Shown piece by piece: positions 13,275-40,639 of a DNA stretch of 64,000 nucleotides. The position numbers and the translations under genes were made by a program. The notes beneath the pieces were generated by a model, which did not search any database, was not told the DNA's origin, and saw only the letters and a list, made by a program, of their open reading frames with translations. Origin of the DNA: a virus (Duplodnaviria; Caudoviricetes); IMG/VR virus record IMGVR_UViG_3300029288_000095, positions 32,001-96,000 of that record; one strand, written 5' to 3'. The first letter of the stretch is position 1. The number at the start of each line of letters is the position of its first letter.

Positions 13275-15470
13275 ATGGGTATCAAAAGCAATTTTCTCGG
13301 AACGCATACGATGGGCAAGGCGATGTCGGATGCGCTGCGCCGAATGGCTTGCAAGAAAGAACCGCAGAAGGTAGAAGCGCCACTTGTCGGCGATAAGATC
13401 GCTTATGCCGAAGCCGAAAAGCTTGGCTTTGTAAAATCGGCTCGCGCTCTTGGGCGCAATGCTTTTGAAGCGACTTGTGATCTTGGAAAAGTGATAGATT
13501 CTGGCTCGGTGTGGACCTTGACTACAAATGCCGATGGACAGAAGTTCTTCGTCAAGCAGATTGATGAAGCGGGTAACATTGTCCGCAAACTTAAAGCATC
13601 TAAAACTAAATCGGTTAAAGTCACTTTCGCCGAAAAAACTTTTCATGCGCCAGTGCTTAAAGTTGTTGAAGCCGATTATAAACGTATGTTCGGCGTCACT
13701 CCCGAAGAAGTAGAAAAGAATGGGAAAGAAATCGGCGAAGATACCGAAGACGAAGGTTATATAACCAAGTTCTATGACTTCAATGGTAAATCGTATTTCA
13801 TATCAAAAGCTATTGGAGATAATCTTGTAGCCAGTTTTGGTGAAATTGAAAGCGAAGCTAAACGTGACAAAAATGAATCTGCCGAAGCTCAGCTTGGTGT
13901 AAAAGCCGAATCGCTCATGGAAAAGATTCAGCACGAACTTATATCTGTACTGCAAAATAACGATAAGCGCGATGGTATGCCGTTTGAAGTTAGCGATACG
14001 CTCGGCGGCGAAACATCTGTATATGATTTCAATCTGAAAGAAGATCTTGATGAATTCAAGAAAGATATCGGAGAACTTGGATACGAAGTTGTTTCGGTGA
14101 ATGCCGGTGTTGCTACGGTGCAGAAGAAACGGGTTGAAGAAGCATCATCAAATGAAAAGAAAGTAGAAGCTTCCAAAGAAGTTAAGGCTGAAGTGCTTCC
14201 TTATTCCGCTGATGAAATCGCGGCGCTTGTTAAAGACGTTAACGGTTTTTATGGTGTGATGCTTGATGAAGTTCAGACGAAAGAACTTGCGGATATCCTT
14301 TTCAATAAAGAAAAAGAAACCGTAGACAGCGGAAAGCTTTTTACTGACTTTGACTGGAAAGCAACGGTAGAATCTTTCCTTTCATCGAAAGAAGAAAAGA
14401 AAGAAGTAGAAGCTGCTAAATCAGTAGTCGCCGAAGAAAAGCCCGAAGAACAAGTATTCAATACGCCCGAAGAGGCTACATCCTATATAAACGATAAGCG
14501 GAAGTCCACGGCTATGCCGCCAGATAAGGTCTACGAAACGAAGAAGGACGAGAATGGCAAGTTCCGTCTTGTTCCTAAGACGGCATCGGTAGAAAAGAAA
14601 GCTGAAGAACCCATAGACGAAGTTGCGGCGAATGAACTTTATATCTTCGCCGTAAATGATAGTGATCTTTACCGACAGATGCTTCAGCCGATTCAGAAGA
14701 ATCTCATAAACAAAAAAGCGCAAGGTGTATATAACCCAACGCTCGCGCTTAAAGCGTTTATGAATTTTATGCAGATCGCTGCGCAGAAGTACACGAAGGA
14801 ATATGCTTCTGATCGTGACAAATGGTACGATCTGTTCCCAGTAGAAGTGCGCAAAGCGGCGGCAAATGAAGCGCTGAAGTATTTTGAAACCGAAGCCGAA
14901 CTTGGTAACTATGATAACTATCTGCATAAGAAGTATCAGAAGAAACCCGCCGCGCCTACCCCAGAAGTCACCCCTCCAGTCGAAGCGGATATGAACAAAG
15001 AAGGTTCACATAAAGTCAAAGCCGAAGATGAAGAAACCGGCGAACTTAATATGCGCCTCGAATCTGCGATTAATCGCCTTATAGAAAAAGGCGAAGATAT
15101 TGATTATATTCTTCAATACGTAAATTCTATGAATCGTATGGAAGGCGAATTCGCGCAAGGTGAAAAGTTCAATATTACCAAGGACGAACTGATATCCATA
15201 ATAACCGAACAGATGGGTTATGAGATTGAAGGTGATATGGTAAAGAAAGCGTCCGCCGTAGAAACTGACGAACCAGGAAGCTTAGAATCTATAAAACTTT
15301 CTTTTTATTCTACTGATGAAAGCACGGGTGGAAAATATTATCTTGATGAAAATGATAATGTGTATAAAACCGTTGAAGGTGTTATGTATGAATGTACGGA
15401 TGAAGGAGAACCGCTCGCTGAATTAAAAGCTCCGTATGAAATTATTGAAACGGAAACAGTTGAGGAGTAA
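13275..15470 (+). CDS. large acidic multi-domain protein, putative internal head (ejection) polyprotein
   Basis: 731 aa; globular segments separated by KxAS/KxAE-containing charged linkers. Confidence 0.6.
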   Translation: MGIKSNFLGTHTMGKAMSDALRRMACKKEPQKVEAPLVGDKIAYAEAEKLGFVKSARALGRNAFEATCDLGKVIDSGSVWTLTTNADGQKFFVKQIDEAGNIVRKLKASKTKSVKVTFAEKTFHAPVLKVVEADYKRMFGVTPEEVEKNGKEIGEDTEDEGYITKFYDFNGKSYFISKAIGDNLVASFGEIESEAKRDKNESAEAQLGVKAESLMEKIQHELISVLQNNDKRDGMPFEVSDTLGGETSVYDFNLKEDLDEFKKDIGELGYEVVSVNAGVATVQKKRVEEASSNEKKVEASKEVKAEVLPYSADEIAALVKDVNGFYGVMLDEVQTKELADILFNKEKETVDSGKLFTDFDWKATVESFLSSKEEKKEVEAAKSVVAEEKPEEQVFNTPEEATSYINDKRKSTAMPPDKVYETKKDENGKFRLVPKTASVEKKAEEPIDEVAANELYIFAVNDSDLYRQMLQPIQKNLINKKAQGVYNPTLALKAFMNFMQIAAQKYTKEYASDRDKWYDLFPVEVRKAAANEALKYFETEAELGNYDNYLHKKYQKKPAAPTPEVTPPVEADMNKEGSHKVKAEDEETGELNMRLESAINRLIEKGEDIDYILQYVNSMNRMEGEFAQGEKFNITKDELISIITEQMGYEIEGDMVKKASAVETDEPGSLESIKLSFYSTDESTGGKYYLDENDNVYKTVEGVMYECTDEGEPLAELKAPYEIIETETVEE

Positions 15471-15475: not shown

Positions 15476-16276
15476 ATGGAACTTTCAAATTGCAGAATCC
15501 ACAAAGGTAAACTTGTGCGCATGTTTAAGGGAGCTTGCGGTGGGAAGAACGAAATCTTTTGTTCTACGCCGGACTGCATAAATAACTGCGTGGAAGAATC
15601 GAAATGCGGACTGCCGCTGGTGAACGTTGTCGGAGCAAACTGCAATGATTATGTTCCAAAGAAAGAACAGACTGTTACTGTTGCTTCAACCGCTTCGCGG
15701 AAAGTTACTATCAAGCGTACAGCAGCGGAGAAAGAAGATGAAAAAGATATCACTATTGAAGTGCCTGAATCGAATGCGAAAGATATCAAATCACCCGCCG
15801 ATAAAGACAAAGGAAACGCAGAAGAAAAAGAAGTCCAAGAAGTAAAAGATACCGCATCAATTAAAAGCGAACTGTGGACGACTACGCTGAACAAGACTAT
15901 TGAAGAAGCGCTTGATGTAGAATCCGCCGCCGATGCATGGATGAAAAACATGAAGAAATCTCTCGGTGAAAAACTCGCCGACGAAGAAATATCAGAAGCG
16001 GATTATGATTCGCTGCTTGATGAACTTGAAGATATGCACGAAAACGGAATCCTTGAAGACGCGATTAAGGATAAGATAAACGAATCGGCTGGCGACATAG
16101 ATGGAGGGGCAGAAGAACCACCGCTTGAAGAAGCGCCAAAGGATGAAAAGACGAAAGAAGAAGAACCGAAAAAGGAAGAAGAAAAGCCGACTGAAAAGAA
16201 AGAAGAAGCCAAGCCCAAAAAGAAGACCAAGGAAGAACTTCCGGAACTGCCTGGTCTTGATCTTGAAAACGTCTAA
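15476..16276 (+). CDS. acidic protein with Cys-rich N-terminus, putative head-associated
   Basis: 266 aa, K/E-rich tail. Confidence 0.6.
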   Translation: MELSNCRIHKGKLVRMFKGACGGKNEIFCSTPDCINNCVEESKCGLPLVNVVGANCNDYVPKKEQTVTVASTASRKVTIKRTAAEKEDEKDITIEVPESNAKDIKSPADKDKGNAEEKEVQEVKDTASIKSELWTTTLNKTIEEALDVESAADAWMKNMKKSLGEKLADEEISEADYDSLLDELEDMHENGILEDAIKDKINESAGDIDGGAEEPPLEEAPKDEKTKEEEPKKEEEKPTEKKEEAKPKKKTKEELPELPGLDLENV

Positions 16277-17316: not shown

Positions 17317-18222
17317 ATGGCTATTTTTTCACCAGGTTTTCTGAAGAAGGCATTGAAGCATGCTGTTGCCGGAGATTCTATCGGCGAAGGATTTAATATC
17401 AGACATGTAACCGTACCGCATCAAGGGTGGTACAACCCGCTTTATCTAAAAGAAGCCACGTATAAAATTCTACAGAAAAATATTCGCAAGGCTGGTTTTT
17501 CTGTTACGTCAGCCAATTACGAAAAGATAGATTATAAAATGGATAATTCTAATCGAAAGATAACAAGCGGTCATGTCGATTTTATAATGAAAATCATGAC
17601 GCCAGACGGGCAAGACAGGTCAGTGAACGCTTCTGTTGTCATAGAAAATGATATTATATGCGATACCGTTGATCATTTCACAGATAATTGCGGTAACAAA
17701 TATGCATTCACACGCGCCGGTCTTAAATCGTTTTTAATGGGCGTAGAAGAAGAAACCAATAAGCCGCACGAAACTGTTTATCCTTCTGTTGGTGACGGCG
17801 GTAGTCAGTCTGGGCAAGCTGGCGGCGCAGAACCGAATCTTGCTTTCATGCAAAAAGATTTGAAAATTATGAAACTTGGTCATGCAAAAGATAGCCGCAT
17901 AACTGAAGCTATGAATAAAATTGCGGCTACGAATGAACAAGTTATTGAACTTTTTATAAATGATAGTTTTCCCAAGGATAAGATGACTTCATGGGGTACA
18001 CCGAATTTAAAGATAACTAAACAGTCGAATGGTTGGGCGCTGGTAAATTACAGTACACCGTTACTGTATCGTGATGCTGATGGAATGGTTTACTTTAATA
18101 CACAAAAATATTCCGTATCGACATCTCGAATACAGAATCTTATTAGAAGTATTCTCGGTGGAAAAGAACCAGTTGAAGTTGATGAATCTGGTATAAAAGA
18201 AAAAATAGGAGCATCAAAATGA
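17317..18222 (+). CDS. putative head protein with C-terminal cargo domain
   Basis: 301 aa; domain after KIAA has LVNYSTPL...KYSVSTSRIQ. Confidence 0.6.
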   Translation: MAIFSPGFLKKALKHAVAGDSIGEGFNIRHVTVPHQGWYNPLYLKEATYKILQKNIRKAGFSVTSANYEKIDYKMDNSNRKITSGHVDFIMKIMTPDGQDRSVNASVVIENDIICDTVDHFTDNCGNKYAFTRAGLKSFLMGVEEETNKPHETVYPSVGDGGSQSGQAGGAEPNLAFMQKDLKIMKLGHAKDSRITEAMNKIAATNEQVIELFINDSFPKDKMTSWGTPNLKITKQSNGWALVNYSTPLLYRDADGMVYFNTQKYSVSTSRIQNLIRSILGGKEPVEVDESGIKEKIGASK

Positions 18223-18899
18223 ATTTCAAACCAGTAACAGTTTTCACGGATAAGACACCGAGCAAGCCAAGAACGGTAACAGCTTCAACTAGAAAGGCAG
18301 AATATCATTCTGATCAATTGGATGGGTTGAACAAAAACAGCGAATATCCGATTACAGTTCAATTCCACGATGCCGATGGGAATAAAACAAAATGGATGGA
18401 TATTAACCAAGAAAGTATTCCCGTTATCATTTCTTTTTTGGAAAGCATGAAGAAGGGCGAACCGAAAGAAGTATCCGCCGCCGCTGAAGAACCAAAAGAA
18501 GAAAAAAAAGACGAACCGAAAGATACTCCAAAGGAAATGCCAAAAGACGCTCCGAAAGATTCGCCCAAAGCGTTTAACGTTAAGTTCGACGGTAATATCA
18601 CCGTAACTGATGGTAAAGGAGAAGTTGTTCTTACGCTTAATGCGCCAGATCTTTCGCCTGAAGATATTGACAAGCTGAAATCCAGCGACATAAAATCTCT
18701 TGCAGAAAAGTTTACTAAGATAAAAGAACTTGGGCTTACACTTGAAAATACAAATCTTGATTTCGGCGATCTTTCCAAAGAAAGTCTTCCGCCACCAGAG
18801 GCGATAGGAAAAGATGCCGCGCCTTCTGATGATAAGCCGCTTGGAGCTTGGGCTACTAATAAATTGAAAAGCATCGAAGCTAAAGTAGAACAAAAATAA
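18219..18899 (+). CDS. putative head-associated protein with PKD repeats
   Basis: 226 aa, VTAS/RKAE motifs. Confidence 0.6.
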   Translation: MNFKPVTVFTDKTPSKPRTVTASTRKAEYHSDQLDGLNKNSEYPITVQFHDADGNKTKWMDINQESIPVIISFLESMKKGEPKEVSAAAEEPKEEKKDEPKDTPKEMPKDAPKDSPKAFNVKFDGNITVTDGKGEVVLTLNAPDLSPEDIDKLKSSDIKSLAEKFTKIKELGLTLENTNLDFGDLSKESLPPPEAIGKDAAPSDDKPLGAWATNKLKSIEAKVEQK

Positions 18900-18912: not shown

Positions 18913-19893
18913 ATGGAATTCTTTAATGGCGAAAAAGTAATAGTTGCGCGAAATATAAAAACCGAATCTGGTGAAATGATAAAATGCGCAGAAGAAGTTA
19001 TCATAACCAAGATACGCCCCGATCTTATTTCTGTTCAGTGGAACAAAGATAAGCGGGAACTGAATGCGCTTACTCCGCCAGATTCTATATTTAAGTATAC
19101 TGAAAGCAATCGGCAGATCGCGGATAACCGCAAAGAGTTTCTTAACCTTCTGGCGATGCAGAAGACGGCCATTGACGTTCAAGGATTTCTTGGTCGTGTA
19201 AAAGAATACTGGGATAAGAACAAGGCTGATGTTAAAGCAGCGCTTGAATTCATAGGTAAGACCATTAAGAACCGCATCGCTGACTTTACTGGAGAATTCG
19301 ATAAGCTTTACAACGGGCTGAAAGGCATAATCGGCGTACAGTATACCGAAACTCTCGCGCAGTATATACCCGACCTTGCCGCCAATAAAGTAGCAAAGAT
19401 GAAAACATCTATGGTTAAAACTTCCGCCAATATGGACCAAGTATTCATCAAAGCGGAAGATTCGTATGTTCCTTCGGATGCCGTGTATGATGTGATACTG
19501 AATAGGCTATCAAATCTGCTCGGCGACAATTACCCGCATGAAGTTGTGGCAAGTGTTGTGCCGACAATCGCGGAGTATACGGATGATCAAAAGAAGCTTA
19601 TACTTAAAATCTCTAAGCTCGCGGAAAATTATCGTGTCGCCCAAAGCGTTCTTCCGCTTGCGTTTCTGGATAAAGAAGACCTTGATATCGTTACTGCGGA
19701 AGAAGATAAAGCATTAGAAATCGCCGATAAATATGATGTCAAAAATAAGAATAAAAAGTTGAAAACAAAGCAAGTTGTGAACGAAGAAAAGCGCCCGTGT
19801 CAGCTTCTGCCGGCGAAAGGCGCACAGCCAGAAATGGCGGAAATAGATCGGATTAACGCTGATCCGAATTCAAACGCGGGACATTTCTTTTAA
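18913..19893 (+). CDS. putative head-associated protein
   Basis: 326 aa, GGAG RBS. Confidence 0.65.
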   Translation: MEFFNGEKVIVARNIKTESGEMIKCAEEVIITKIRPDLISVQWNKDKRELNALTPPDSIFKYTESNRQIADNRKEFLNLLAMQKTAIDVQGFLGRVKEYWDKNKADVKAALEFIGKTIKNRIADFTGEFDKLYNGLKGIIGVQYTETLAQYIPDLAANKVAKMKTSMVKTSANMDQVFIKAEDSYVPSDAVYDVILNRLSNLLGDNYPHEVVASVVPTIAEYTDDQKKLILKISKLAENYRVAQSVLPLAFLDKEDLDIVTAEEDKALEIADKYDVKNKNKKLKTKQVVNEEKRPCQLLPAKGAQPEMAEIDRINADPNSNAGHFF

Positions 19894-19905
19894 TCGGAGT
19901 TATTT

Positions 19906-20940
19906 ATGCATGAACAGCTTGCACAATATGCCAAGCGCTATTCTGAAACAGACCTTGAAATTCTGTTGAAAGGCGGGCTTGAAGTTACGCATAAAATAGC
20001 TTCCAACATAGCCATCTATGAAGATAAAGTTCCGGTTGAAGAAGCAAAAGCACAGATAGAAAATGCCGATCTTATGTCGGCTGTTTTAGCGTGTATACAG
20101 GAAGAAGGTTTCATAGCTGAAATAAACGGCGAACATCTTGTTGTCGCTCAATCTTCCAAGTTTGAAGAAAAGCTTGCGAATAAGGTTTGGGTTGGCGATC
20201 ACGTTGGACAAGAACTTGTTCGTCAGGCAAAGAAAGCAAAAGAAAAGATGGTCAAGATACAACGTGTGCCGTCTAAGTTCGCAAAGCCGGCAGAAGAACT
20301 CGGCTGGGGAACACCTGGCTATACCTATTGTTCTGTTTGGAGAATACCAGCAACTCATACGATTGAAATAGGCGGATATGTCGTACCGGCATATATGGTT
20401 GGATATACACAGAAAATCATGCCGCGCTCGACGCAGTGGGGAACGAAGGAAAACGAAAATAAGCAGATCGTTCCTGACCGCGCAAAGATTTCAAAGCTTG
20501 AATCGGTGAACAGAATTCTCACAGCTATGGAAAGCTCGGCGCGTCTTGTTCAGAAAGAAAATCCCAAGACGGGCGAAAAGGAATGGGCGCTTGTTTCTAC
20601 GGATGATTCGGCTAAAACACTTAGGTATTTTGGACCAGATAAACCGTCAAATGAAGCTGTAGAAAAAGAAGAAAAGCGCGTTAATTATTTTAAGCATAAT
20701 GCACATTATCTTGGTTCTGAAAAATCAGTTAAGACATTCATAGAAATTGATGGAAATGAAAAAGACGTAGAAGTTTTTTTTGATTATACGCCAGCGGAAA
20801 AAGAAACTGGAACTGGCGAACAGCTTGTCATAAATCGGGTTATTGATGTTGCCACTGGTGATAAACTTGATCTGAATGAAGCGCAGATTGACGCGCTTAA
20901 AGAAAAGGCATTTGAGTCTCTTGAAAATGGCAAAGAATAA
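19906..20940 (+). CDS. putative head-associated multi-domain protein
   Basis: 344 aa; WALVS...LRYFG...EKRVNYFKH motif resembling phage head accessory proteins. Confidence 0.6.
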   Translation: MHEQLAQYAKRYSETDLEILLKGGLEVTHKIASNIAIYEDKVPVEEAKAQIENADLMSAVLACIQEEGFIAEINGEHLVVAQSSKFEEKLANKVWVGDHVGQELVRQAKKAKEKMVKIQRVPSKFAKPAEELGWGTPGYTYCSVWRIPATHTIEIGGYVVPAYMVGYTQKIMPRSTQWGTKENENKQIVPDRAKISKLESVNRILTAMESSARLVQKENPKTGEKEWALVSTDDSAKTLRYFGPDKPSNEAVEKEEKRVNYFKHNAHYLGSEKSVKTFIEIDGNEKDVEVFFDYTPAEKETGTGEQLVINRVIDVATGDKLDLNEAQIDALKEKAFESLENGKE

Positions 20941-23646
20941 ATGGCGAAACACACGGATTATGATTGGCTAACAACACGCGAAAGGAACTTGAAGAAGACG
21001 AAGAAAGATACGCGTCGGGAAATGGACATTGATATCGATGGACTTCCCCAAGAAAGCAACGGCGGTTACGATATGGTCGGGAAGCAAAGCCCGTCCGATA
21101 AGAATATAATAAGCCCAGTGGCGCATAGGACGAACAGGAGTACGACAATGAATATGCCAAAATGGATTGAAAAGGCGGCTAACATCTTCGTTGGCAAGAA
21201 GATAGGCGAAGAAAAGATAGTTACCGCATCCGAAAAGAATCCTAATCTGTCCGCCGTTGATGCATACCTTGACAAGAACAGAATTCATCTTAATGAATTT
21301 ATGTATACAAGCCTTTTGAAAAAGGCGGAAGCGGTTACGGTTAATTTGGCTTCTGACTTTAATACAATCGGCAAAATGGTCAAAGAGGTTTACGATGAAG
21401 CACTTCACCAAGCGCAGACTCCACAGCCAGTTGAAAAAACGGCTGGAAAATATGACTACACGTTTACCGCGAATATTGCGAAAGCGCAGAAATCGCAAGT
21501 CAAACAAACCGCTAGTGGATATACTACACTTGCTGAATGTATCTCTGATATCGCTGCCAAAATGAAAACAGAAGTAACATCTGACGAAATACAGGATGTT
21601 ACTAAACAAGTACAGAATGAAATAAGCAAGCGCCGCCATGCGTCTAATGACGATATAACTTCTCTGGTCGTAAAAGCTGTTGAAGTAATCGCGGCTAAGA
21701 AGACGGGCGTTAAACTTGCGCACAATGGTATCCGCACTACCGTTGATCAGATAAAACTTGAAGCGGCGCAAAAAGTGGCGATAGCCTCTACGCTTGAACA
21801 GAATAAAGTGACAAAAGTCAAGGCTGAAGCACTTTCAGAAGCGGCGAAAAAATCGGTGAAAGAAGCCGCTGAAAGAATGACATTTCCTAAAAATAAAGTA
21901 ACAGTTCAAAAGCAAGTAAATCTCCCCGAAGGTTATCAAAAGAAAGAAATGGATGAAGGAAAGGAAATTTCTACTCCAGCCACAAAACAAGCTGAAAAAC
22001 TTTTCCAAAAGATCGTCGATCAGTTTTCTGTCATTGCTGAAATAGAAGAAAAAGTGAAAATAAAGATAGAAGAAATAAAAAAAGAGGAAGGACTTCAGAA
22101 AGAAGTTGAAAAGATGGAAGCTGCCGTTACGGATCTTGCTACCCTCGCTGGAACAGCTCACAACAATGCAATACAAATTCAAAGCAAAGCTACGGCAGCA
22201 TATAATTATGCAGTTCTTGTTACGCACGAAAAGCAAAAAGAAGAACCTACTGAAGAAGAAATTGTTGCAGAGATGAAAAAGAAGATTCCATTTTTTGATC
22301 TTCAACAGTATAATGAAATGTCGAAAGCGCTTTCTGAATCAATAAAATCTATTAAAGCGGCTAAAGGATTTAAGCTTGTTGAAAAGTCTATGCCGGAACT
22401 GAAAATAGTTACGAAGGGTTCGCTGAATGTTACCGCAGAAGAATATGTTGATCTTGTTTCTGCTATAGAAACACTTTCGGCACAAGTATCTGAATTTAAT
22501 TCAGTTATGGAAAAAGATCTTGCGGAATTTGAATCCGTTGATCTCGGTGAAGAAGTAGCAGAAGAACAGATCGCGGCTTCAGCTAAACCGAAGCTTGAAA
22601 AGAAGGCTGAAGCTGATGATACGTACTATGTTGAAGTATCACTACAACCATCTAGCGGAGGATTTGGTGAATGGGCACGCCACGCAAATTCACATGGCCC
22701 TTACACAGAAAATGAAGTATACGGAGATATTTTTGATATATTAAATATGGCTAAAGAAAATATCGATAGAGAAATATATCAACTGGGAGAAGCTGATGTC
22801 CCAAAAGAAATTGATGATATCCGTGGTAAAATACATAATGAGCCAACTTTTGTTTTCGGTTATTTGGACGAAAACAATGAGCCAAAATATTTTGGCGTAG
22901 ATGAAATTGGAAAAAATGAAATCAAAGGTATGGAAAAAGAATCTTCTTGGAAATCCACTAAACCGCCCAGGCAGTGGTTCAATGAAAAAGCCAACGAAAT
23001 CAGCAAAGGAAATCCAGATTATACCGACGAACAAGTAAATGCTACCGTTGGTAAAATTTGGTCAGACATGAGCGAAAAGGATAAGGCGGCAAAACGCCAC
23101 AGCGAAGGCAAGGAATACGGTACGCCGAAAAAGGCTTCGCTCAACAAGCTTGGCAATGACTTCATGCTGCGCAAAGCTGGGTTCCCAGATCGTTACCCAT
23201 ACATCGACAAATGCCGTAACTGCGCATTCTTCTATAGCGGTCTTGGAACGGTATACGACAAGTGCGTAGACTGTATCCACTTCTACAGTGAACCTGAGTT
23301 GAAAGATATGGCAAAGGAAGATATCAGCGGATTGGGGGACTATTTTTATGATAAGAGCAACAAGTTCAATGTAGGGACGCCCGTATTCAATACGAAACAC
23401 GCTTCGCTTAAAGTAGACGCCACACAATATAACAAGCTTGATGAAGATTCAAAAAAGCTTGTAAAAGAAACCATTGCTCTTGAAAATGAGATATCTAGTC
23501 TAATGGAAAAACCCGGCAATAGGGATATTGTGAATAAAAAATATCAAGAGTACAAATCCCAAAGAGCATCTTTATCTGGAAAATATGGGTATCAAAACGA
23601 ATCGTTTAATGAAGCGGTTAAACAATATATGAAAAGTAATTCTTAA
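20941..23646 (+). CDS. large coiled-coil/multi-domain protein, putative internal head polyprotein
   Basis: 901 aa; many KxAS/KxAE motifs; C-terminal small domains (NPDYTDEQ, CxxC). Confidence 0.6.
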   Translation: MAKHTDYDWLTTRERNLKKTKKDTRREMDIDIDGLPQESNGGYDMVGKQSPSDKNIISPVAHRTNRSTTMNMPKWIEKAANIFVGKKIGEEKIVTASEKNPNLSAVDAYLDKNRIHLNEFMYTSLLKKAEAVTVNLASDFNTIGKMVKEVYDEALHQAQTPQPVEKTAGKYDYTFTANIAKAQKSQVKQTASGYTTLAECISDIAAKMKTEVTSDEIQDVTKQVQNEISKRRHASNDDITSLVVKAVEVIAAKKTGVKLAHNGIRTTVDQIKLEAAQKVAIASTLEQNKVTKVKAEALSEAAKKSVKEAAERMTFPKNKVTVQKQVNLPEGYQKKEMDEGKEISTPATKQAEKLFQKIVDQFSVIAEIEEKVKIKIEEIKKEEGLQKEVEKMEAAVTDLATLAGTAHNNAIQIQSKATAAYNYAVLVTHEKQKEEPTEEEIVAEMKKKIPFFDLQQYNEMSKALSESIKSIKAAKGFKLVEKSMPELKIVTKGSLNVTAEEYVDLVSAIETLSAQVSEFNSVMEKDLAEFESVDLGEEVAEEQIAASAKPKLEKKAEADDTYYVEVSLQPSSGGFGEWARHANSHGPYTENEVYGDIFDILNMAKENIDREIYQLGEADVPKEIDDIRGKIHNEPTFVFGYLDENNEPKYFGVDEIGKNEIKGMEKESSWKSTKPPRQWFNEKANEISKGNPDYTDEQVNATVGKIWSDMSEKDKAAKRHSEGKEYGTPKKASLNKLGNDFMLRKAGFPDRYPYIDKCRNCAFFYSGLGTVYDKCVDCIHFYSEPELKDMAKEDISGLGDYFYDKSNKFNVGTPVFNTKHASLKVDATQYNKLDEDSKKLVKETIALENEISSLMEKPGNRDIVNKKYQEYKSQRASLSGKYGYQNESFNEAVKQYMKSNS

Positions 23647-30753: not shown

Positions 30754-30781
30754 ATTGTACATCAAAATATAAAAATGTCAA
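30754..30781 (-). promoter_or_regulatory. sigma70-like promoter of ncRNA array 2
   Basis: TTGACA-N16-TACAAT then AGTTCTTTGAAA. Confidence 0.75.
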
Positions 30782-30802
30782 GACCGAAAATGCATAAAAA
30801 AA

Positions 30803-31977: not shown

Positions 31978-33645
31978 ATGAAAAACGAACAACCAACACT
32001 ACCTTTAGGAAAAACGGCGATGAAAAAAGGCGGCGAAAGTCTTTCTGATGGGCTTGTGAAAAAAGCTAGTTCAATGGCGGCAGCTTCATCGTCGTCTGGA
32101 ACGGGCGTACAGCCGACAAGTACGTATCATCCGCTGTATCAGGCGACTTCGCTGATATTGCCTACGAGAATTCGTGAAATAAATCAATGGACAAGATCAT
32201 TTTATAAAAAAGAACCTCTTGTTTACACCGGAACAAATTTAAATGCCGAATTTCCTATAACTGGTTTTAGAAATCTTTGTTCGGATAAAAAAGTACAAGA
32301 CTATTTTGACCATATGGCATTTGATGTTTGGAATATTAACAAGCTGCTAAGTTTTGTATCCCTTGAACACGAAAAAATTGGAAATGTTTTCGTTACAGGG
32401 ACGTGGGATGAAGAAAATGGAACTTGGAAAAAATTCCAGTGTCTAAATCCAGATTATGTTGAAGTCGAATCTACACCATTTGCAGATAAACCAATACTCA
32501 GCCTTGACCCCGATGATGGTCTTCGTCGTGTAGTAAAAGAGCGTTCTCCAAAAGCGCTTTATGATCAGCTTGATCCAGTAATGATAGAGTATATATCCAA
32601 GGGCAAGAAAGTACCTTTGTCTGATATCCAAATTGTATTGCAAAAAAGCCGACAGCGCGAAGACGGGGCTGAAGTAACCGAAGAAAAAGAATACTCTTTT
32701 CCGCAAGTCTGGCATTTGGCAAATAAAAATTCTCCATACGAAGCTTACGGCACTTCTCCTATTTATGCTTGCCTACAAGCTTTGATATATAAAGACCTTA
32801 TACGCCAGACACAGTTTTCTATCGCTCGCCGGCATTGGAAGCCGATTAAGGTTGTGAAGGTTGGCGATCAGAATAATCGCGCGAATACAGCCACGTTGAA
32901 GGCTGTACAGCAAAAGCTTATGGAAGCTTCTTCCACGAATGATGGATGGCTTATTTGGCATAACTATCTTACGGTAGATTATATCGGATCTTCGGGACAT
33001 CTTGTACCGATGGATCGCGAGTTAGAGTGGGTTAACAGTGAAATTTACGCCGCGCTCGGAATAAATAAAGCAATGATCATGGGCGAAAGCGTGAACTATG
33101 CTTCGGCGAACGTAGGGCTTAAAATATTGATTGGGCGCTACGAACGCAGACAGAAAATGTATACTGAATTCATAAAAGAATTTATTTATAAGCCCGTTGC
33201 GCGTGTGCAAGAGTTTTATAAGACGACCGCCGATGGACATCAAGAACTTATCATACCCGATATTGAATGGGGAATGATGCGTATGTTTGATGACGCACAG
33301 CAAAAAACGCTTCTGCAATCGCTTCAGAAGGCGGGTCTTGTCAGCAAACGTTCGCTGCTTACTTTCTGTAATATTGACTTTGATCGCGAAAAGGAACTTA
33401 TTTCAAAAGAAAAAGAAGAAGAACGCCAAGCCAAGACGAAAGAAAAGTTTGAAGATAAAAAGACAAATACCAGCCTGAATAAAACAGACAAGGGTGGTGA
33501 TACTGGTGGCGATAAACAATTGGAACTCGATCTCGGAGGCGGGGGTGAAGCGGGTGCTGGAGGTGGCGAAACGCCAGCAGAAGCACCGAAAACACCGCCA
33601 GCGGAAACCGCGCCAGCAGAAGCACCGTTAGAACTTAACATCTAA
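31978..33645 (+). CDS. portal protein
   Basis: 555 aa; IGNVF, LNPDYVEV, YGTSPI, IYAALGI, LIIPDIEW pattern of large-phage portals; position before protease and MCP. Confidence 0.85.
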   Translation: MKNEQPTLPLGKTAMKKGGESLSDGLVKKASSMAAASSSSGTGVQPTSTYHPLYQATSLILPTRIREINQWTRSFYKKEPLVYTGTNLNAEFPITGFRNLCSDKKVQDYFDHMAFDVWNINKLLSFVSLEHEKIGNVFVTGTWDEENGTWKKFQCLNPDYVEVESTPFADKPILSLDPDDGLRRVVKERSPKALYDQLDPVMIEYISKGKKVPLSDIQIVLQKSRQREDGAEVTEEKEYSFPQVWHLANKNSPYEAYGTSPIYACLQALIYKDLIRQTQFSIARRHWKPIKVVKVGDQNNRANTATLKAVQQKLMEASSTNDGWLIWHNYLTVDYIGSSGHLVPMDRELEWVNSEIYAALGINKAMIMGESVNYASANVGLKILIGRYERRQKMYTEFIKEFIYKPVARVQEFYKTTADGHQELIIPDIEWGMMRMFDDAQQKTLLQSLQKAGLVSKRSLLTFCNIDFDREKELISKEKEEERQAKTKEKFEDKKTNTSLNKTDKGGDTGGDKQLELDLGGGGEAGAGGGETPAEAPKTPPAETAPAEAPLELNI

Positions 33646-34982: not shown

Positions 34983-35033
34983 GTCAAAAGTTGATTTTAG
35001 GGTAAAAGCTGAATCATCAATAAGGATCTCATA

Positions 35034-35951
35034 ATGATGTACAAAACAGCATCCTGGGGAGATAACGTAACTTCATACGAAGTGATTGAGCGCGATCATG
35101 CGAAATCACGGGGTAATGAATATTCGTTAAGTGTCTTCGGGAGCAAATCGCGGTTTCAGAAAAAATATGCTTATGTTCTTGATGATTATCGTAGCCGTAT
35201 TGCTTCTAAAATAAAAGCGCAGAATCTTACAATCGGAAATTACGATCCAGAATTTCATTACTTTCGTGTTATAGCTGTCCACGGCGACACGCCGAATGAT
35301 AACGGTGATATGTTTCGTTGGGGTAGCATGGATGATAAAAATTCGCCTGAGCTTATGCGCTTTGATAAGCAAACTGAAAGATATGTTTACGAAAGTTTTG
35401 TCGGTCGTGGCAACTTTAAAAACCACGCCAATGATGATGTATCAAAAGCAGTCGGTATCGTTCTTGATTCTGTGCCTAATCATAATGGTCGCTTTATTGA
35501 ATGTCTGCTTGCGGTGGACGAGGTTAAAGATCCTGAACTGGTAAGGTCGATCAATAAGGGCTACATCAACGCCGTTTCGATGGGCGCTGTTGTCGGGCAT
35601 TCGTATTGCAGCGTCTGCAACAATATGGCTAAAACCGAAGCGGATTTCTGCGATCACGTTAAGTTCCATAAGGCGCAGAAGATCCACATCGGTGGGAAAG
35701 AACAGCACGTCTACGAAGATAACCGCAATGTGAATTTTATAGAATTGAGCTGGGTTACGGTTCCCGCAGATAAATCGGCGCTTCTTCTTGAAAAAGTTGC
35801 AAGCCGCGTCCAGCGCGGAGAACAGATAGACCTTGGCGATGAAAAGATGGTTAATGCCGTAGCGACGTGGATATATCTCTACGGCGAAGAACATACAAGA
35901 AATCTTCTCGGCGGTATTGTTGATGCCGTGCAAGACATAAAAAACATCTAG
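35034..35951 (+). CDS. prohead maturation protease
   Basis: NDNGD, FKNH, GIVLD, VSMG (catalytic Ser), CSVC..C.H, FIELSWVTVPAD; lies between portal and MCP. Confidence 0.8.
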   Translation: MMYKTASWGDNVTSYEVIERDHAKSRGNEYSLSVFGSKSRFQKKYAYVLDDYRSRIASKIKAQNLTIGNYDPEFHYFRVIAVHGDTPNDNGDMFRWGSMDDKNSPELMRFDKQTERYVYESFVGRGNFKNHANDDVSKAVGIVLDSVPNHNGRFIECLLAVDEVKDPELVRSINKGYINAVSMGAVVGHSYCSVCNNMAKTEADFCDHVKFHKAQKIHIGGKEQHVYEDNRNVNFIELSWVTVPADKSALLLEKVASRVQRGEQIDLGDEKMVNAVATWIYLYGEEHTRNLLGGIVDAVQDIKNI

Positions 35952-35961: not shown

Positions 35962-36504
35962 ATGGGATTTTCAAGAAACAAAATGTCTATTGGAATGAGC
36001 GAACGCCAACGCGCAATACAGGCTGATCTTAATGCTCGTTCACAGCAAAAGGGCGGTAATGTTAATCCAGAAGTTCTTGGCGCTATAAATACTGAAGAAT
36101 TTTCTTTTGCTGGATCTCTCGGGATACCGAATGAAGCGGTTATCACGGCGGCGACTAAAGCTGGTGGCAATTCTGTTCCAGGAATGGGTATGAAGCTTAA
36201 CCCCGAAATAGAAGCTATCGTTGCGAAGGCAAAGAATCGGCTTACTTCGGTTGCGGGTATGGTTCCACAGCAAACCACTAGTGATGTTTTTGTAACTGAT
36301 CCAAGTCAGTCCGCTGTGCCGCGCATTGCTATGAATAAGCAAGCCGCGAAAGATGAACTTTCTACGCGCAAGGCGAATCTTATTCTGAAACGCAACGCCA
36401 AAATGAAACAGATGGAATGGTCACAAGACAAGAATCTTAAAGTTGAAGTGGCCGATATGAACCGCGAAATTAAGAAGATCGATTCACAGCTTCAAGGACT
36501 CTAA
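35962..36504 (+). CDS. hypothetical head-module protein
   Basis: 180 aa, GGAG RBS. Confidence 0.7.
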   Translation: MGFSRNKMSIGMSERQRAIQADLNARSQQKGGNVNPEVLGAINTEEFSFAGSLGIPNEAVITAATKAGGNSVPGMGMKLNPEIEAIVAKAKNRLTSVAGMVPQQTTSDVFVTDPSQSAVPRIAMNKQAAKDELSTRKANLILKRNAKMKQMEWSQDKNLKVEVADMNREIKKIDSQLQGL

Positions 36505-36506: not shown

Positions 36507-37316
36507 ATGTTTACAACCTATGCTTCCCGAGCAAACCTTCTGGTCGAAAAGATTAAAATTACGGCAGAAGAACAAGCCATACTGGACCTATTCAAAGAAA
36601 GTCAATCAATTGAATTGGATCAGATACCTTACCGCATGGCGAATAAAGATTTTCAATCGCTTATGCAGAAGGGCTACGTGCGGACGGCTGGGAACAACAC
36701 GGTTATTCTTTTGAAGAAGGCTGAAGAAAAAAACGATCCTATTATGGTCGATTCTGCCGGTCAATATATTATAACAATTACTTTTGAAAAACCGATATCA
36801 AATGAAATAACGCATAATATAAGTCAAGATTTTATTGCGCCCGTTATTGAAGCACAAGACGGCGAATATCCTTTACCGCGAATAGAAGTTGACGGTAATA
36901 AAATGCATATTATCGTTCCAGAAAATGTTGATGAATATGAATATAAAAAAATTCTTCAAAAACCAATTGATGATTATGTTGCACTTGCTGGATATAAACC
37001 CGTGAATGCATCATTCAATAAAAATATTTATGAAAAATCTAAACCAAGTATCATTGCTTTGAAACAGAAGCAAGCCGAAACTCCTACAGAAATTGAAATG
37101 GAACATAAAAAAACGTTTGATAAAATCAGAAAAGACGTTAAAGAAGATGGCAAGCTTGACATGAAGGATAAAGATATCGCCAAAAGCATTTCTAAAGATC
37201 ATGGCAAAGAACTTGATCCGAAGAACCCCGCCGAAGGCGTAAAAGAATATTATGATGAAAAGACGGGACTGCCGGCATTTGAAAAAAAGCTTGAAAAGAA
37301 AGAGGAGAAGAAATAA
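36507..37316 (+). CDS. head-module protein
   Basis: 269 aa; IEMEH...IAKSISKDH..E...YY motif. Confidence 0.65.
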   Translation: MFTTYASRANLLVEKIKITAEEQAILDLFKESQSIELDQIPYRMANKDFQSLMQKGYVRTAGNNTVILLKKAEEKNDPIMVDSAGQYIITITFEKPISNEITHNISQDFIAPVIEAQDGEYPLPRIEVDGNKMHIIVPENVDEYEYKKILQKPIDDYVALAGYKPVNASFNKNIYEKSKPSIIALKQKQAETPTEIEMEHKKTFDKIRKDVKEDGKLDMKDKDIAKSISKDHGKELDPKNPAEGVKEYYDEKTGLPAFEKKLEKKEEKK

Positions 37317-37729
37317 TGGAAAAGCAAGCGCTTGACGATGAACCTAAAAAGCACAAGAAAGATAATTATACTTTCTATCCAGAACTGTCTGGAGCTGGTG
37401 ATCCAGATCTGATCAAGAAACGGATCACCGAACTGAAAGGCGCGATCAAGGCTTTGTCTAAAGACGCCGAGTTCTTTTCAAAGGAAATCCAGAATCTTCA
37501 GTCTTATGTTGATCTGTTTGAAAACATGATAGGTAAGAAGAAAGAAGAAGGATCTGAAAAGCAAGCCGGCGTTCTTCCTAAAAAAGCCAACCAGCTTGAC
37601 GTTATGGATTTTAAGAAAAAGAAAGAAAACGAAGCGGCGTTTTATTCCAAAGCCTACGGCGACAAAGGCTTTGCGTCTAAACTGACTAAAGACTATAAAC
37701 CGTCTGGGCGGTCATTCCCGAAGGTTTAA
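37316..37729 (+). CDS. head-module protein sharing a KAYGD repeat with the scaffold
   Basis: C-terminal ~50 aa closely similar to an internal scaffold segment. Confidence 0.7.
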   Translation: MEKQALDDEPKKHKKDNYTFYPELSGAGDPDLIKKRITELKGAIKALSKDAEFFSKEIQNLQSYVDLFENMIGKKKEEGSEKQAGVLPKKANQLDVMDFKKKKENEAAFYSKAYGDKGFASKLTKDYKPSGRSFPKV

Positions 37730-37768: not shown

Positions 37769-40639
37769 ATGAAATATTCAGCCACCTTTAATAGACTTCC
37801 TACCAAAACTGCGTCTTTTTGGCAAGTCACCGATGAATCTGGAAAGGAAGTAATAAAGGCTTCTGTCGCCCAGCTTTGGGGTAAACAGGCTTTCAAGATG
37901 TATGATAAGGTTGCTACTGAAGATTATGGTAATGCGATCCTTGCGCGTATAGAAAAGGATGGTCTGGAAAAGGTTGCGGCAACGATGGGCGTTGAGCCGA
38001 TGATCGGCGGCGATGCGCCGAAGGCAAAGCCGAAGTTTAATTTTAATAAACCGAAATCTGATGTTCCGGCTGTAGACAATTCGGCAAAAATTCCCAAAGA
38101 ACTTCCGAAAGCAGAAGCGCCGAAAGCGGATGCTGAAAAGAAACCTGAAGCGCCGAAAAAGAAATCAGTCAAAGACTATGCAAAGGAACTTGAAGCCTTC
38201 GTAACCGACATTGAAATCGACGAGAAGAAAAATGAATACCAGTTCAAGACCGAAGATGGCGGCGAAGTCGTTGTGAAGGTCGAAGCTAAAAAAGCGGACA
38301 AAAAAGAGGACGCGCCGAAGTCGGAAGATGCGCCAAAAGCCGAAAAGAAAGAGGAAAAAGAAGCTTCACTTGTCACCGCAGAAGCGGACAAAAAAGAGGA
38401 CAAAGGCTTCAAGATCGAAATAACCAAAGAAGGCAAGAAGGGCATGTGCAAACAGACTTCTGAAATCCTTACCAAGTTTATGACTGATCACGAAAAAGAT
38501 ATGGAAAAACTCGTCAAAGAAATTGAAGGCGAAGACGAAAAGCCCGAAACGAAAAAGGAAGAAAAGAAGGAAGATAAGACTGAAAAGAAAGAGCCGAAAG
38601 AAAAAGATGAAAAAGAAACGCCGAAAGAAGAAAAGATGGAGCATAAGAAAAGCGCTTCCGCATCTCATTCTAAGGCGTTTGATGTTTTTCTCGACGGCAA
38701 AAATATTGATACCGTGTTCTATTCTATTGATGAAGTGGTAGATGCCGATGAAGTTAAGAAATCTCTTATTGAACATGACGGATATGACCCAAATATTGAA
38801 GTGGAAGAAGTGATTTCTAATAAAAAAGCATCGCTTGAAGTGGAAGAAGATATTCCCGAAAAACACGCCAATCAGTTGAATACCATGTCCTTCAAGAAAA
38901 AGACCGTGAACGAAAAAGACTTCTATTCAAAGGCTTACGGCGATAAGGGTTTTGCGAATGGTCTTACGAAGAACTACAGCGGAAAAGATGGTCGAGCATT
39001 TCCGAAGATTGCTGCTAAGAATAAAGTCGATTATCCTTTCGTTGTAAATCCAAAGGCATCCAAGCCCGAAGGTGCGAAAGAATATTTCGGTAAAGAATAC
39101 GGCGATGAACAGTACGGTAAGAAACTTACCAAGAAATATAATCCAGGTAAACGGGCATACCCCGCCGCGCTTATTACCAAGATGATGCAAAAGCAGGCTT
39201 CGCTTAAAAAGGAAGCGCTTGAACTGTGGAAGTCTGCGCCGAATTATGGCGGAGAAGATTATAGCGATTATTACGTAGTCGCTGTTCGCACTCGCGATTC
39301 TAACGCTGTTGAAGAAAGTAATTTCGAATCGGCTTTGAAAAAGCTCGGCGGTGAAAAAGATGGCGTTATGGTTGCCCGTGCAAATCATTGGGCTGTCGGA
39401 TGGGTTGAATATCTTCTTGTACATAAAGGTGCGGCTGAAAAGGTTGCTATTGCGCAAGATATCGAAGCCAAGCTCGCCGAATATCCTATTCTCGACGAAG
39501 ACGATATGTCACAGCGCGAAATACAAATAGCCGATCAAGCCTACGAAGATTATATAAAAGATGAAGCGATAGAACATCTTGGTCTGAATGCGGATGAACT
39601 TTCCCCAGAAGATTTTGAAGCATTGAAAGATGCGGTTATGCAAGGTATGGAATATGGTGAAGAACCAACGGTAGCTTCGTGGAATATTGTTGAAGAAGCT
39701 TGGAATAACTACAAGGTTCAGCAAGAAACTGGTTCTAAACATACTCCCGATCTTCCTGGGGTTGAAGCGCGTAAGAATAAGTTCCGCGAAATGAAAGCCA
39801 AAAGGATTGCATCAATGGAAAAGAAAGCTGAACAGAAGAAAGTGGCGTATGATTTTACTGCTAATCAAGATATCGCTGTCGGCGATAAAGTTGAGGGCGG
39901 TACAGTAGTTGAAGTTAAGCGCGTACAGGATGTTTACGCTAACGAAGAAGAATTTAATCAATGGCAAGAAACATACGGGCAAGAAGGGCTTTCTTGGGAA
40001 GGTAATGAAATTGTCACCGTTGATATTGATAAAGAAGGTATTGTCGTTGAAAAGTTTATCTACGAAATTGAAAAGGATGAACCCGTGGAAACTGAAAAGC
40101 AAATACCAATGGCTACTGAAACCAAAGTAGAAGATAAGCCAGCGGCTATGGCGGCAGCGAAAGAAAAGCTTCTTCTGGCTGAAAAAGATAAGCAAATCAA
40201 GTATCTTGAAAAGAAGGTCGCAAACACCGAATTGAAAGTTGAAAAGTTGGCAAATGATAGAAACGAACTGATCGACGAAAAGGTTATTCGGATCAAAGCT
40301 GAAAAATCGCTTGATCTGTATAAGTTCGCACTGTCGAAAGGTTTGGTTGAAGAAACCGAAAAAGATGAGTTCATTGAACAGACTATGGATATGGACGATA
40401 AGTCTTTTGCGCTTTTCGATGCTAATATAAAGAAAATGGCATCAAAAGTGGTTACTGCGTCGAACACTTCTACGGAAGTTACGAATAAGAACGGTTCGAG
40501 AATTATTGTCAAGAACGCTGGCATGAAAAAGATTCCAAATCTCGCGTCCGAAAAAGTAGAACTGGGAGACTTTAAGAGCGCGGATTTGAAAGACAAGATT
40601 GCTAGTATCTGGACAGTTACAAAACGCCCACAAGAATAA
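37769..40639 (+). CDS. large scaffold-like protein with embedded cargo domains
   Basis: 956 aa immediately before decoration/MCP genes; K/E-rich, C-terminal coiled coil, internal globular inserts. Confidence 0.65.
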   Translation: MKYSATFNRLPTKTASFWQVTDESGKEVIKASVAQLWGKQAFKMYDKVATEDYGNAILARIEKDGLEKVAATMGVEPMIGGDAPKAKPKFNFNKPKSDVPAVDNSAKIPKELPKAEAPKADAEKKPEAPKKKSVKDYAKELEAFVTDIEIDEKKNEYQFKTEDGGEVVVKVEAKKADKKEDAPKSEDAPKAEKKEEKEASLVTAEADKKEDKGFKIEITKEGKKGMCKQTSEILTKFMTDHEKDMEKLVKEIEGEDEKPETKKEEKKEDKTEKKEPKEKDEKETPKEEKMEHKKSASASHSKAFDVFLDGKNIDTVFYSIDEVVDADEVKKSLIEHDGYDPNIEVEEVISNKKASLEVEEDIPEKHANQLNTMSFKKKTVNEKDFYSKAYGDKGFANGLTKNYSGKDGRAFPKIAAKNKVDYPFVVNPKASKPEGAKEYFGKEYGDEQYGKKLTKKYNPGKRAYPAALITKMMQKQASLKKEALELWKSAPNYGGEDYSDYYVVAVRTRDSNAVEESNFESALKKLGGEKDGVMVARANHWAVGWVEYLLVHKGAAEKVAIAQDIEAKLAEYPILDEDDMSQREIQIADQAYEDYIKDEAIEHLGLNADELSPEDFEALKDAVMQGMEYGEEPTVASWNIVEEAWNNYKVQQETGSKHTPDLPGVEARKNKFREMKAKRIASMEKKAEQKKVAYDFTANQDIAVGDKVEGGTVVEVKRVQDVYANEEEFNQWQETYGQEGLSWEGNEIVTVDIDKEGIVVEKFIYEIEKDEPVETEKQIPMATETKVEDKPAAMAAAKEKLLLAEKDKQIKYLEKKVANTELKVEKLANDRNELIDEKVIRIKAEKSLDLYKFALSKGLVEETEKDEFIEQTMDMDDKSFALFDANIKKMASKVVTASNTSTEVTNKNGSRIIVKNAGMKKIPNLASEKVELGDFKSADLKDKIASIWTVTKRPQE

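Follow-up and report, generated by a model that had tools for sequence, protein, structure and literature searches.

Why do the head proteins of a single phage carry the same short motif again and again, and does that motif mark places where they are cut? The question arises from an uncultured phage (Caudoviricetes; IMGVR_UViG_3300029288_000095), of which a 64,000-nt window was analyzed (positions 32,001-96,000 of the record). A first-pass annotation of this DNA had described a recurring K/V-x-A-[S/E/G] motif bordering globular segments of the head proteins, and all motif strings that it quoted are present in the translations where it had placed them. We consider it probable that the gp21-fold prohead serine protease of this phage (35034-35951) recognizes the motif, in the form [K/R/V]-x-Ala with Ser or Glu usually next, and that cutting probably follows the Ala. 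Coordinates are those of the window, and the genes given here with coordinates all lie on its plus strand.

The head module runs from the portal (31978) through the protease (35034) to the capsid protein (41208), an order common to three related loci (L001-L003) and phage G. The major capsid protein (311 aa; 41208..42143; phrog_2522 at 2e-76) is the context marker for the module. An ORF at 33925-35034 was discarded as a gene, being the antisense shadow of a transposase. No cultured phage matched the head region by megablast, and the relatives used below are no closer than 81% identity, except for one 5.3-kb contig. A minus-strand block lies between the head genes and a second block of motif-bearing genes at 13-24 kb, whose ties to the head consist of the motif and synteny with L003. 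Products of this block, including its 731- and 901-aa proteins, are presumed on these grounds to enter the capsid.

Motif enrichment in the head proteins and across related loci

Motifs were counted in a head set of 18-19 proteins from the two gene blocks (6.3 kaa), with the other 171 ORFs of the 115.7-kb genome as background. The pattern [KV].A[SEG] occurs 49 times in the head set compared with 20.2 expected from per-protein shuffles (z 6.5-6.7), and shuffling within windows of 20 or 40 residues led to the same outcome. The first-pass annotation was right about the Ser form (22 vs 5.3) and the Glu form (23 vs 9.9), the latter including KKAE (6 vs 0.9) and VKAE (4 vs 0.4), but the Gly form shows no excess (4 vs 4.9). 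Both [KR].AS (18 vs 4.3) and [VLI].AS (13 vs 5.4) are enriched, and AS is the most enriched of the 400 dipeptides in head proteins (51 vs 29), with no enrichment outside them. The variants [KR].GS, [KR].SS, and [KR].AT are not enriched in the head set, and the reversed motif SA.[KR] is depleted (1 vs 4.9). Sites of the types cut in other phages are present there at the expected frequency, both for T4 ([LI].E, 78 vs 78.1) and for phiKZ and SPN3US ([SAG].E, 120 vs 121.5; A.E, 53 vs 52.1). Consistent with the earlier impression that the motif is scarce elsewhere, the remaining 171 ORFs have no excess (52 vs 43.5) and the major capsid protein contains no [KR]-x-A-S. Site pairs spaced exactly six residues apart are strongly overrepresented in the window (8 vs 0.4). 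A strict six-residue period of [KR]-x-A is confined to the window, and the relatives have a broad excess at spacings of 4-7 and 11.

An unbiased pattern scan was made of 79 large proteins from 45 related loci. After conserved Cys motifs were set aside, K.AS was the top pattern (111 vs 39), and R.AS was also overrepresented (49 vs 15); the extremes among single proteins were 14 vs 1.6 in L033 and 9 vs 0.5 in L042. Members of the family share the motif, which is specific to head-module proteins and has [K/R/V]-x-A as its conserved core, the following residue being variable among relatives. Certain lineages show little enrichment, mycobacteriophage Tonenili among them (28 vs 17 for [KR]-x-A).

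A prohead protease with motif copies at both ends

The gene at 35034..35951 encodes a prohead (head-maturation) serine protease of 305 aa (phrog_18299 at 5.7e-24). Its sequence matched no Pfam family at E <= 0.01, including the T4 gp21 family (S77), and neither sequence searches nor a profile of 24 homologues found a match in the PDB. The fold search alone succeeded. An AF2 model (pLDDT 74.7 overall, 84-97 over the core) matched T4 gp21 (5JBL) in Foldseek at prob 1.00 and in VIA at Z 14.1 (rmsd 2.9, 147 of 164 residues aligned), and herpesvirus proteases matched it in VIA at Z 6-8. As modeled, the protein has the T4 gp21 fold and is a gp21/assemblin-fold prohead serine protease (MEROPS clan SH). 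The candidate catalytic pair H131 and S182, 51 residues apart, is invariant in the 24 homologues, as is, across the protease family, the Ser of the VSMG motif that the first-pass annotation had selected for mutation. A Cys-rich insert follows the catalytic Ser.

K-x-A is kept at both ends of the protease across the 24 homologues. Family members have K/R-x-A at residues ~4-6, followed by a variable residue, and the catalytic domain ends with L-E-K-[VI]-A ahead of a variable tail. The protease may cut itself after Ala6 (nt 35040-35054) and Ala256 (nt 35790-35804). The portal (555 aa; 31978..33645; phrog_16240 at 1.3e-45) has a candidate site after Ala30 (nt 32056-32070), upstream of its conserved core. 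[KR]-x-A is present in the variable N-terminal extension of 32 of the 34 related portals, with one K-x-A positionally conserved ahead of the core, so the motifs noted earlier at both protease ends and at the portal N-terminus hold up among relatives. During prohead assembly the protease would trim itself at both ends and remove a portal leader of ~30 residues together with the short leaders of several other head proteins. In the 269-aa protein (36507..37316), the N-terminal eight residues, which close with T-Y-A|S-R, do not vary among three orthologues; the same protein switches from conserved to variable directly after K-A72, where the homology of the three orthologues ends. Next to it are a 180-aa protein without an AS site (35962..36504, between the protease and the scaffold-like protein; orthologues in L002 and L055) and a 137-aa protein (37316..37729), the C-terminal ~45 aa of which repeat an element of the 956-aa protein.

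Modules bordered by the motif

The 956-aa scaffold-like protein (37769..40639), which contains inserted modules, has 29 [KR]-x-A compared with 16.9 expected. A leader that ends in K-T-A|S is followed by a conserved N-terminal module (residues 16-75), then by variable modules, and the C-terminal part (~790-956) is a coiled-coil. The N-terminal module is found internally in protease fusion proteins of distant relatives, and the C-terminal part is common to L002, L004, and L008. A tandem site, K-Q-A|S-L-K-K-E-A|L (residues 475-484; 39191..39220), directly precedes an inserted globular module at residues 484-681 (39218..39811). This module is missing from the L002 orthologue, the alignment of which lacks residues ~471-682. 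Stand-alone relatives of the module begin at the equivalent of L484, and in its AF2 model (pLDDT 88.3) the fold starts at module residue 2. The family comprises 2162 cluster representatives, mostly stand-alone proteins of 110-240 aa. K-x-A lies just upstream in 10 of 28 embedded copies and in 2 of 107 N-terminal copies (Fisher 1.7e-6). Foldseek found no PDB match for the module at E <= 0.001, and its structural matches are uncharacterized stand-alone phage proteins. The next module, residues 694-782 (39848..40114), follows a triple site at Ala681, Ala687, and Ala693, six residues apart (39803..39850), of which the two distal K-x-A are retained in L002. It is weakly similar to phrog_13968 and is present elsewhere in proteins of 208 and 268 aa, and relatives P0134 and P0156 carry it.

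Similar arrangements are present in the 13-24 kb block. The 731-aa multi-module protein (13275..15470) has a tandem site at Ala437/Ala443 (nt 14574-14606) before a module at residues 444-570, to which homologues align from residues 444-454; two of these are proteins of 179 and 220 aa with the module near their start. In the 301-aa protein (17317..18222), N-K-I-A precedes a C-terminal module (~198-297), two copies of which are found in a 1408-aa polyprotein of L003, each after K-x-A sites. The 901-aa multi-module protein (20941..23646) has nine AS and six [KRV]-x-A-E sites, and its module at ~733-821, bounded by K-K-A|S and K-H-A|S, recurs in the same L003 polyprotein and in L004 and L014. Searches for orthologues of the 731- and 901-aa proteins (word-index, viral, metagenome, and genome scans, and the L002 contig) found none. 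The block also encodes a 266-aa protein with sites clustered at residues ~69-85 (15476..16276), a 226-aa protein with an N-terminal double site at Ala21 and Ala26 (18219..18899), and proteins of 326 and 344 aa in which [KVT]-x-A-[SE] occurs several times (18913..20940). A 997-aa protein has a full-length DUF5662 domain between two sites, and this domain has a stand-alone 197-aa copy in L036.

For five modules the start could be defined by homology, and it falls directly behind K-x-A; this bears out for these borders the claim that the motif clusters at the edges of globular segments. The likeness of the segments to small stand-alone phage proteins also stands. The modules at 484-681 and 694-782, the 444-570 module, and DUF5662 are found alone or in other combinations, as are those of the 301- and 901-aa proteins in L003. 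The claim about borders fails for some sites: I-K-A-S at residue 31 of the 956-aa protein lies inside its conserved N-terminal module, and since motif copies occur within a folded, conserved module, not every copy marks a border. The N-terminal K-T-A-S of this protein is itself variable, the Ala being present in only 4 of 12 homologous modules. Orthologues had also been expected to differ by indels between motifs, and the result is mixed; the segment absent from L002 and the break after K-A72 of the 269-aa protein agree with this expectation, but several sites of the 956-aa protein are lost in the L002 orthologue. Functions of the modules were sought with Pfam and PHROGs in ten segments, yielding matches that were of unknown function or below threshold. 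Pfam searches of whole proteins and the ten segments returned only DUF5662, a weak HMG-box, and a methyltransferase, and tblastn gave one plasmid match and none to a cultured phage.

Is the motif cut, and by which enzyme?

The protease would cut the 956-, 731-, 901-, 301-, and 997-aa proteins at linkers, often at double sites six residues apart, and such cuts would separate compact modules that are stand-alone genes in other phages. An unlikely alternative is that the motif is an uncut linker or assembly signal (a capsid- or scaffold-binding tag, or a recombination junction) and that processing is confined to the ends of the protease and portal. Near-identical S-K-R-T-A-S linkers are repeated within one protein of L042, as expected if junctions were copied, and this explanation would also accommodate the motif copies inside the conserved module and the outcome of a crude hydrophobicity test of all 59 sites, which did not place the sites in linkers. 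However, the same short core is found in non-homologous contexts and among relatives that are 23-70% identical, and border K-x-A is associated with embedded rather than N-terminal copies of the 484-681 module. The motif at both ends of the catalytic domain also fits the self-processing described for T4 gp21, SPN3US gp245, and herpesvirus proteases.

Less probable still is that a different peptidase makes the cuts, whether from the host or active only once the proteins have been injected. For polyvalent proteins, processing has been attributed by proposal to metallopeptidase domains of their own, in part once they have been delivered (PMC5512222, in the portion considered here), but the proteins scanned yielded no further peptidase domain. 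Moreover, the motif co-occurs with the prohead protease family, marks the protease termini, and reaches a high density in fusions with the protease. That the excess is a by-product of low-complexity linkers rich in Lys, Ala, Glu, and Ser is highly improbable: K, A, and E are indeed more abundant in head proteins than in the rest of the genome, but composition-keeping per-protein and local shuffles still give z 6-7, and these controls, together with the depletion of the reversed motif and the lack of enrichment of [KR].GS, [KR].SS, and [KR].AT, rule out a compositional artefact.

Recognition by the prohead protease, the reading we prefer, can be extended to a broad, mostly uncultured lineage that includes phage G. 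We suggest only tentatively that in this lineage a gp21-fold protease cuts K/R/V-x-A|S/E after Ala, like the herpesvirus proteases, and that the sites form a plug-in code, by which the product of any small phage gene placed between two of them in a protein linked to the scaffold is loaded into the capsid, freed, and delivered with the DNA as an early effector. The first-pass annotation had likewise proposed injected cargo, for example against host defense. If true, sequence would suffice to predict which proteins make up the mature virion, and which are candidates for injection, in a large uncultured phage group, and the recruitment of stand-alone genes as capsid cargo would be explained.

Comparison with known head-maturation systems

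The substrates of T4 gp21 include the scaffold protein gp22, gp67, gp68, the internal proteins IPI-III, and Alt; IPI* is among those products that enter the host with injection and act against its defenses. The protease in the window resembles gp21 in its fold (Z 14.1), its position among head-module genes, and its apparent self-trimming at both ends, and here too many core or internal proteins would be cut at a three-residue signal. T4 differs in cutting after Glu in L/I-x-E, a pattern that is not enriched here. Unlike gp21, the protease in the window lacks a Pfam match and has the Cys-rich insert after the catalytic Ser. Its predicted substrates are multi-module proteins, whereas those of T4 are single small proteins with one leader each.

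Herpesvirus assemblins (S21) cut at the consensus V/L/I-x-Ala|Ser and, like T4 gp21, process themselves. They share the fold clan of the phage enzyme (Z 6-8) and are scaffold-linked, and distant relatives of this phage have the protease fused to a scaffold-like protein. The assemblin consensus resembles the window motif in motif statistics ([VLI].AS, 13 vs 5.4; [KR].AS, 18 vs 4.3). In contrast to the herpesvirus sites, Lys or Arg is preferred here as the third residue before the predicted cut; the enzymes have no detectable sequence relationship, and the phage enzyme has many more predicted substrates. Judged from these patterns, the predicted cut specificity, which resembles the herpesvirus A|S sites, appears to be new. 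To our knowledge, the phage prohead proteases described so far, those of T4 and phiKZ-like phages, act at Glu-type sites. Should the predicted cut be borne out, an Ala-type specificity would be added to these enzymes, and their site preference would be linked to that of the herpesvirus proteases with the same fold.

Processing of many head proteins at a short motif would also be a likeness to phiKZ gp175 and SPN3US gp245. Those phages differ in using A-X-E, which is cut behind the Glu. SPN3US propeptides contain multiple sites, gp245 processes itself, and cargo is ejected into the cell; nearly all of the cuts take off N-terminal propeptides (PMC10052503), whereas inter-module linkers are predicted to be cut here. 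Processed or delivered cargo is a known concept, with examples in the internal proteins of T4, the ejection proteins of SPN3US, and the polyvalent proteins. The last are similar to the proteins in the window in being large, in having swappable modules, and in their predicted co-delivery with DNA and processing into units (Iyer et al. 2017, PMC5512222). In the part of that account considered here, processing is ascribed mainly to a zincin-like peptidase, with no linker code described, and a few polyvalent proteins carry an assemblin-like peptidase (PMC5512222). That domain is C-terminal in the polyvalent proteins covered there, whereas it is N-terminal in the relatives of this phage. Pfam searches of the whole proteins and ten segments found none of the polyvalent signature domains (zincin-like peptidase, ART, ParB-like, and LPD families, among others).

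The closest cultured relative of the protease is gp19 of Bacillus (Lysinibacillus) phage G (40% over 171 aa). Phage G differs in that its corresponding stretch is free of large multi-module proteins, but the gene order is alike (portal, protease, scaffold-like genes, decoration protein, capsid protein). K-x-A is present at the ends of gp19 (Ala11, Ala250, and Ala276), and gp20, gp21, gp22, and the portal likewise have it among their first 5-20 residues (Ala12, Ala12, and Ala5 in the first three; Ala20 or Ala57 as the candidate in portal gp14). The proposed cut is testable in phage G, as well as by co-expression.

Motif enrichment in the head proteins

The first-pass annotation proposed that K/V-x-A-[S/E/G] motifs border cargo domains in the head proteins and form a prohead-protease release code, and every string that it quoted is present in the translations. 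The head set of 18 to 19 proteins (13275-23646 plus 30.4-40.6 kb; 6.3 kaa) was compared with the other 171 ORFs of the genome using per-protein shuffles. [KV].A[SEG] occurs 49 times in the head set versus 20.2 expected (z 6.7, 0 of 400 shuffles as high) and 52 times versus 43.5 expected in the remaining ORFs. The claimed enrichment holds for the Ser and Glu variants (22 versus 5.3 and 23 versus 9.9, respectively) but not for the Gly variant, which makes no contribution (4 versus 4.9). An unbiased ranking places AS first among 400 dipeptides in the head set (51 versus 29); elsewhere it is unremarkable. [KR].AS is found 18 times versus 4.3 expected, its mirror image SA.[KR] once versus 4.9, and [KR].GS, [KR].SS, and [KR].AT match expectation. 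Double sites spaced six residues apart are also in excess (8 versus 0.4). Local hydrophobic content, in a simple test, does not separate the sites from other Ala residues.

Composition, in the form of K/A/E-rich linkers, is ruled out as the source of this excess, since the same excess is obtained when shuffling is confined to 20- or 40-residue windows. Neither the T4 Glu-type signal ([LI].E) nor that of phiKZ/SPN3US ([SAG].E) is enriched in the head proteins, both occurring exactly as often as expected. A 118-aa Cys/His/Leu-rich ORF (30441-30797), for which no relatives were found, is probably not a gene; its removal leaves the motif statistics unchanged.

The signal extends across the lineage. 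We identified 40 protease homologues in a word-indexed protein collection and fetched 45 related loci from IMG/VR. When all 8000 a.bc patterns were ranked in 79 non-redundant large plus-strand proteins (74 kaa), K.AS (111 versus 39 expected, z 10.8) was outranked only by Cys patterns, which reflect the protease's own conserved zinc-ribbon; R.AS occurred 49 times versus 15. Protease-fusion proteins of loci L033 (1870 aa) and L040 (1864 aa) contain 14 and 12 [KR]-x-A-S sites (1.6 and 1.2 expected), and a 916-aa protein of L042 contains nine (0.5 expected), several of them near-identical copies at 55-210-residue spacing. A 1408-aa protein of L003, encoded just upstream of the L003 portal gene, also contains double sites resembling those of the window.

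The head-maturation protease and its candidate sites

The head-maturation protease (35034-35951, plus strand) was assigned to phrog_18299 by profile search. Its AF2 model matches T4 gp21 (5JBL) with a Foldseek probability of 1.00 and, in VIA, a Z of 14.1 (rmsd 2.9 Å, 147 of 164 residues aligned); herpesvirus proteases (Z 6-8) score well below this, as do unrelated folds. With no Pfam or PDB sequence match found, yet a gp21 fold, the protease as modelled is a member of the gp21 fold clan outside the T4 sequence family. H131 and S182 (the Ser of V-S-M-G), 51 residues apart, are invariant in an alignment of 24 proteases, and a Cys-rich insert follows S182. Two sites are conserved in the same alignment: K/R-x-A preceded by a hydrophobic residue, at residues ~4-6, and L-E-K-[V/I]-A closing the catalytic domain, where at least 90% retain Ala256; a variable tail of ~50 residues comes after the second site. 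The site Ala can be followed by different residues (S, N, H, K, E, G, V, or I). Since the conserved unit ends at Ala, the candidate cut at K/R/V-x-Ala would fall, judging from these sequences, after the Ala.

Phage G gp19, which among proteins of cultured phages is closest to the protease (40% identity), shares both features, and gp20, gp21, gp22, and the portal of phage G have K-x-A within their first 5-20 residues. In distant relatives (L022-L045 and L048) the protease is fused to a scaffold-like protein (791-1870 aa), as in the 1236-aa gp249 of mycobacteriophage Tonenili (L048), an arrangement also known from herpesviruses. In the window phage and its near relatives, this fusion is divided into four or five genes. 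The protease gene of L002 (L002:10001-12124) carries a ~360-aa insertion after residue ~222 that looks intein-like.

Genomic setting and other head proteins

The window covers bases 32001-96000 of a 115.7-kb virus record, and megablast of the head region against cultured phages found no close relative. Profile searches assigned the portal (31978-33645, plus strand) to phrog_16240 and the major capsid protein (41208-42143, plus strand) to phrog_2522. A TnpB/IS605-type transposase (33805-34938, minus strand; phrog_506, 3.5e-107) between portal and protease is a recent insertion, since it is absent from that interval in L055, an 81%-identical relative. A 369-aa plus-strand ORF (33925-35034) was rejected as an antisense shadow of the transposase.

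[KR]-x-A is present in the poorly conserved N-terminal extension of 32 of 34 related portals, typically 10-25 residues ahead of the conserved core, even where identity is as low as 23%. Many related portal genes (those of L004, L008, L011-L014, L029, L030, L041, and L045) encode 900-1800 aa because of large internal insertions, which look intein-like. In three orthologues of the 269-aa protein, eight N-terminal residues ending T-Y-A-S-R are invariant and the following residues differ; homology stops right after K-A72 and restarts ~120 residues on. A G-R-[M/V]-A sequence at residues ~24-27 precedes a conserved stretch in the capsid proteins of both the window phage (within 41208-41300) and phage G; it may mark N-terminal processing or just reflect common ancestry.

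Modules between the sites

Profile searches assigned no family to the 731-, 901-, and 956-aa proteins. Residues 484-681 of the 956-aa protein (37769-40639, plus strand) have no counterpart in the L002 orthologue, where the gap extends from just before a K-Q-A-S site to an R-I-A-S site, in agreement with the expectation that orthologues differ by indels at the motifs; several other sites are absent from this orthologue. An exhaustive profile search matched the segment to 2162 cluster representatives, most of them stand-alone proteins of 110-240 aa whose first residues align with L484, which bears out for this segment the proposed resemblance to stand-alone proteins. [KR]-x-A lies just upstream in 10 of 28 embedded copies, whose host proteins reach 2182 aa, versus 2 of 107 copies at a protein N-terminus (Fisher 1.7e-6), so the signal belongs to the embedded state and not to the domain. 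In its AF2 model (mean pLDDT 88.3), the segment folds from its second residue onward, and structure comparison relates it to uncharacterised proteins that stand alone in uncultured phages, in Rhodococcus phage RGL3, and in a mycobacteriophage. Residues 694-782 come after a triple site and also occur within other proteins of 208 and 268 aa.

The leader of the 956-aa protein ends in K-T-A-S, followed by a conserved module that sits inside the protease fusion proteins of distant relatives; there Ser-aromatic-Trp is kept and the Ala of K-T-A-S is present in only 4 of 12. A second copy, I-K-A-S at residue 31, lies inside this module. A ~45-aa K- and aromatic-rich element with the core Y-G-D-K-G-F, which may serve these proteins in binding or targeting, lies at 37580-37729, where it ends the 137-aa protein, and recurs in the 956-aa protein (residues ~367-415; 38867-39013) and in L002 and L003 proteins.

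In the 731-aa protein (13275-15470, plus strand), a tandem site (Ala437 and Ala443) precedes the module at residues 444-570. The alignments of seven shorter proteins start at residues 444-454, and in the 179- and 220-aa members of this group the module is near the beginning. Outside the window, a 997-aa protein (genome 3764-6757) has a full-length Pfam DUF5662 at residues 478-647, bounded by sites at Ala456/Ala466 and Ala663, that is a stand-alone 197-aa ORF in L036. The C-terminal module of the 301-aa protein (17317-18222, plus strand) and residues ~733-821 of the 901-aa protein (20941-23646, plus strand) recur in the L003 polyprotein, again flanked by K-x-A. Word-index, viral, metagenome, and genome scans, and the L002 contig, yielded no orthologue of either the 731- or the 901-aa protein.

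Possible processing and fate of the modules

The most economical reading, which we consider fairly likely, is that the window protease acts at K/R/V-x-Ala and that processing of the multi-module proteins takes place in the prohead. The first-pass observation thus stands, except for the Gly variant, and its interpretation is supported in part. By analogy, released pieces may exit the prohead like scaffold fragments, or may remain and be ejected, as T4 internal proteins or SPN3US ejection proteins are (PMC10052503). The idea that delivered multi-domain proteins are processed into units has been published before (PMC5512222); the portions of that paper considered here name a zincin-like peptidase as the main processing enzyme and set out no linker code. 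The literature searched yielded no phage protease with an Ala-type site, and, since its coverage is incomplete, this is weak evidence of novelty.

The 13-24 kb block would be tied to the capsid solely by the motif and the L003 synteny. Within it, the 190-aa protein (16692-17264) matches a SAM methyltransferase domain (Methyltransf_11, 22.7 bits versus a cut-off of 21.2), and its N-terminal leader of six residues ends N-A|S. The 901-aa protein contains an HMG-box-like stretch at residues 679-716 (22975-23090; Pfam E 2.5e-4, below the curated cut-off), which may be a DNA-binding module in a putative head protein.
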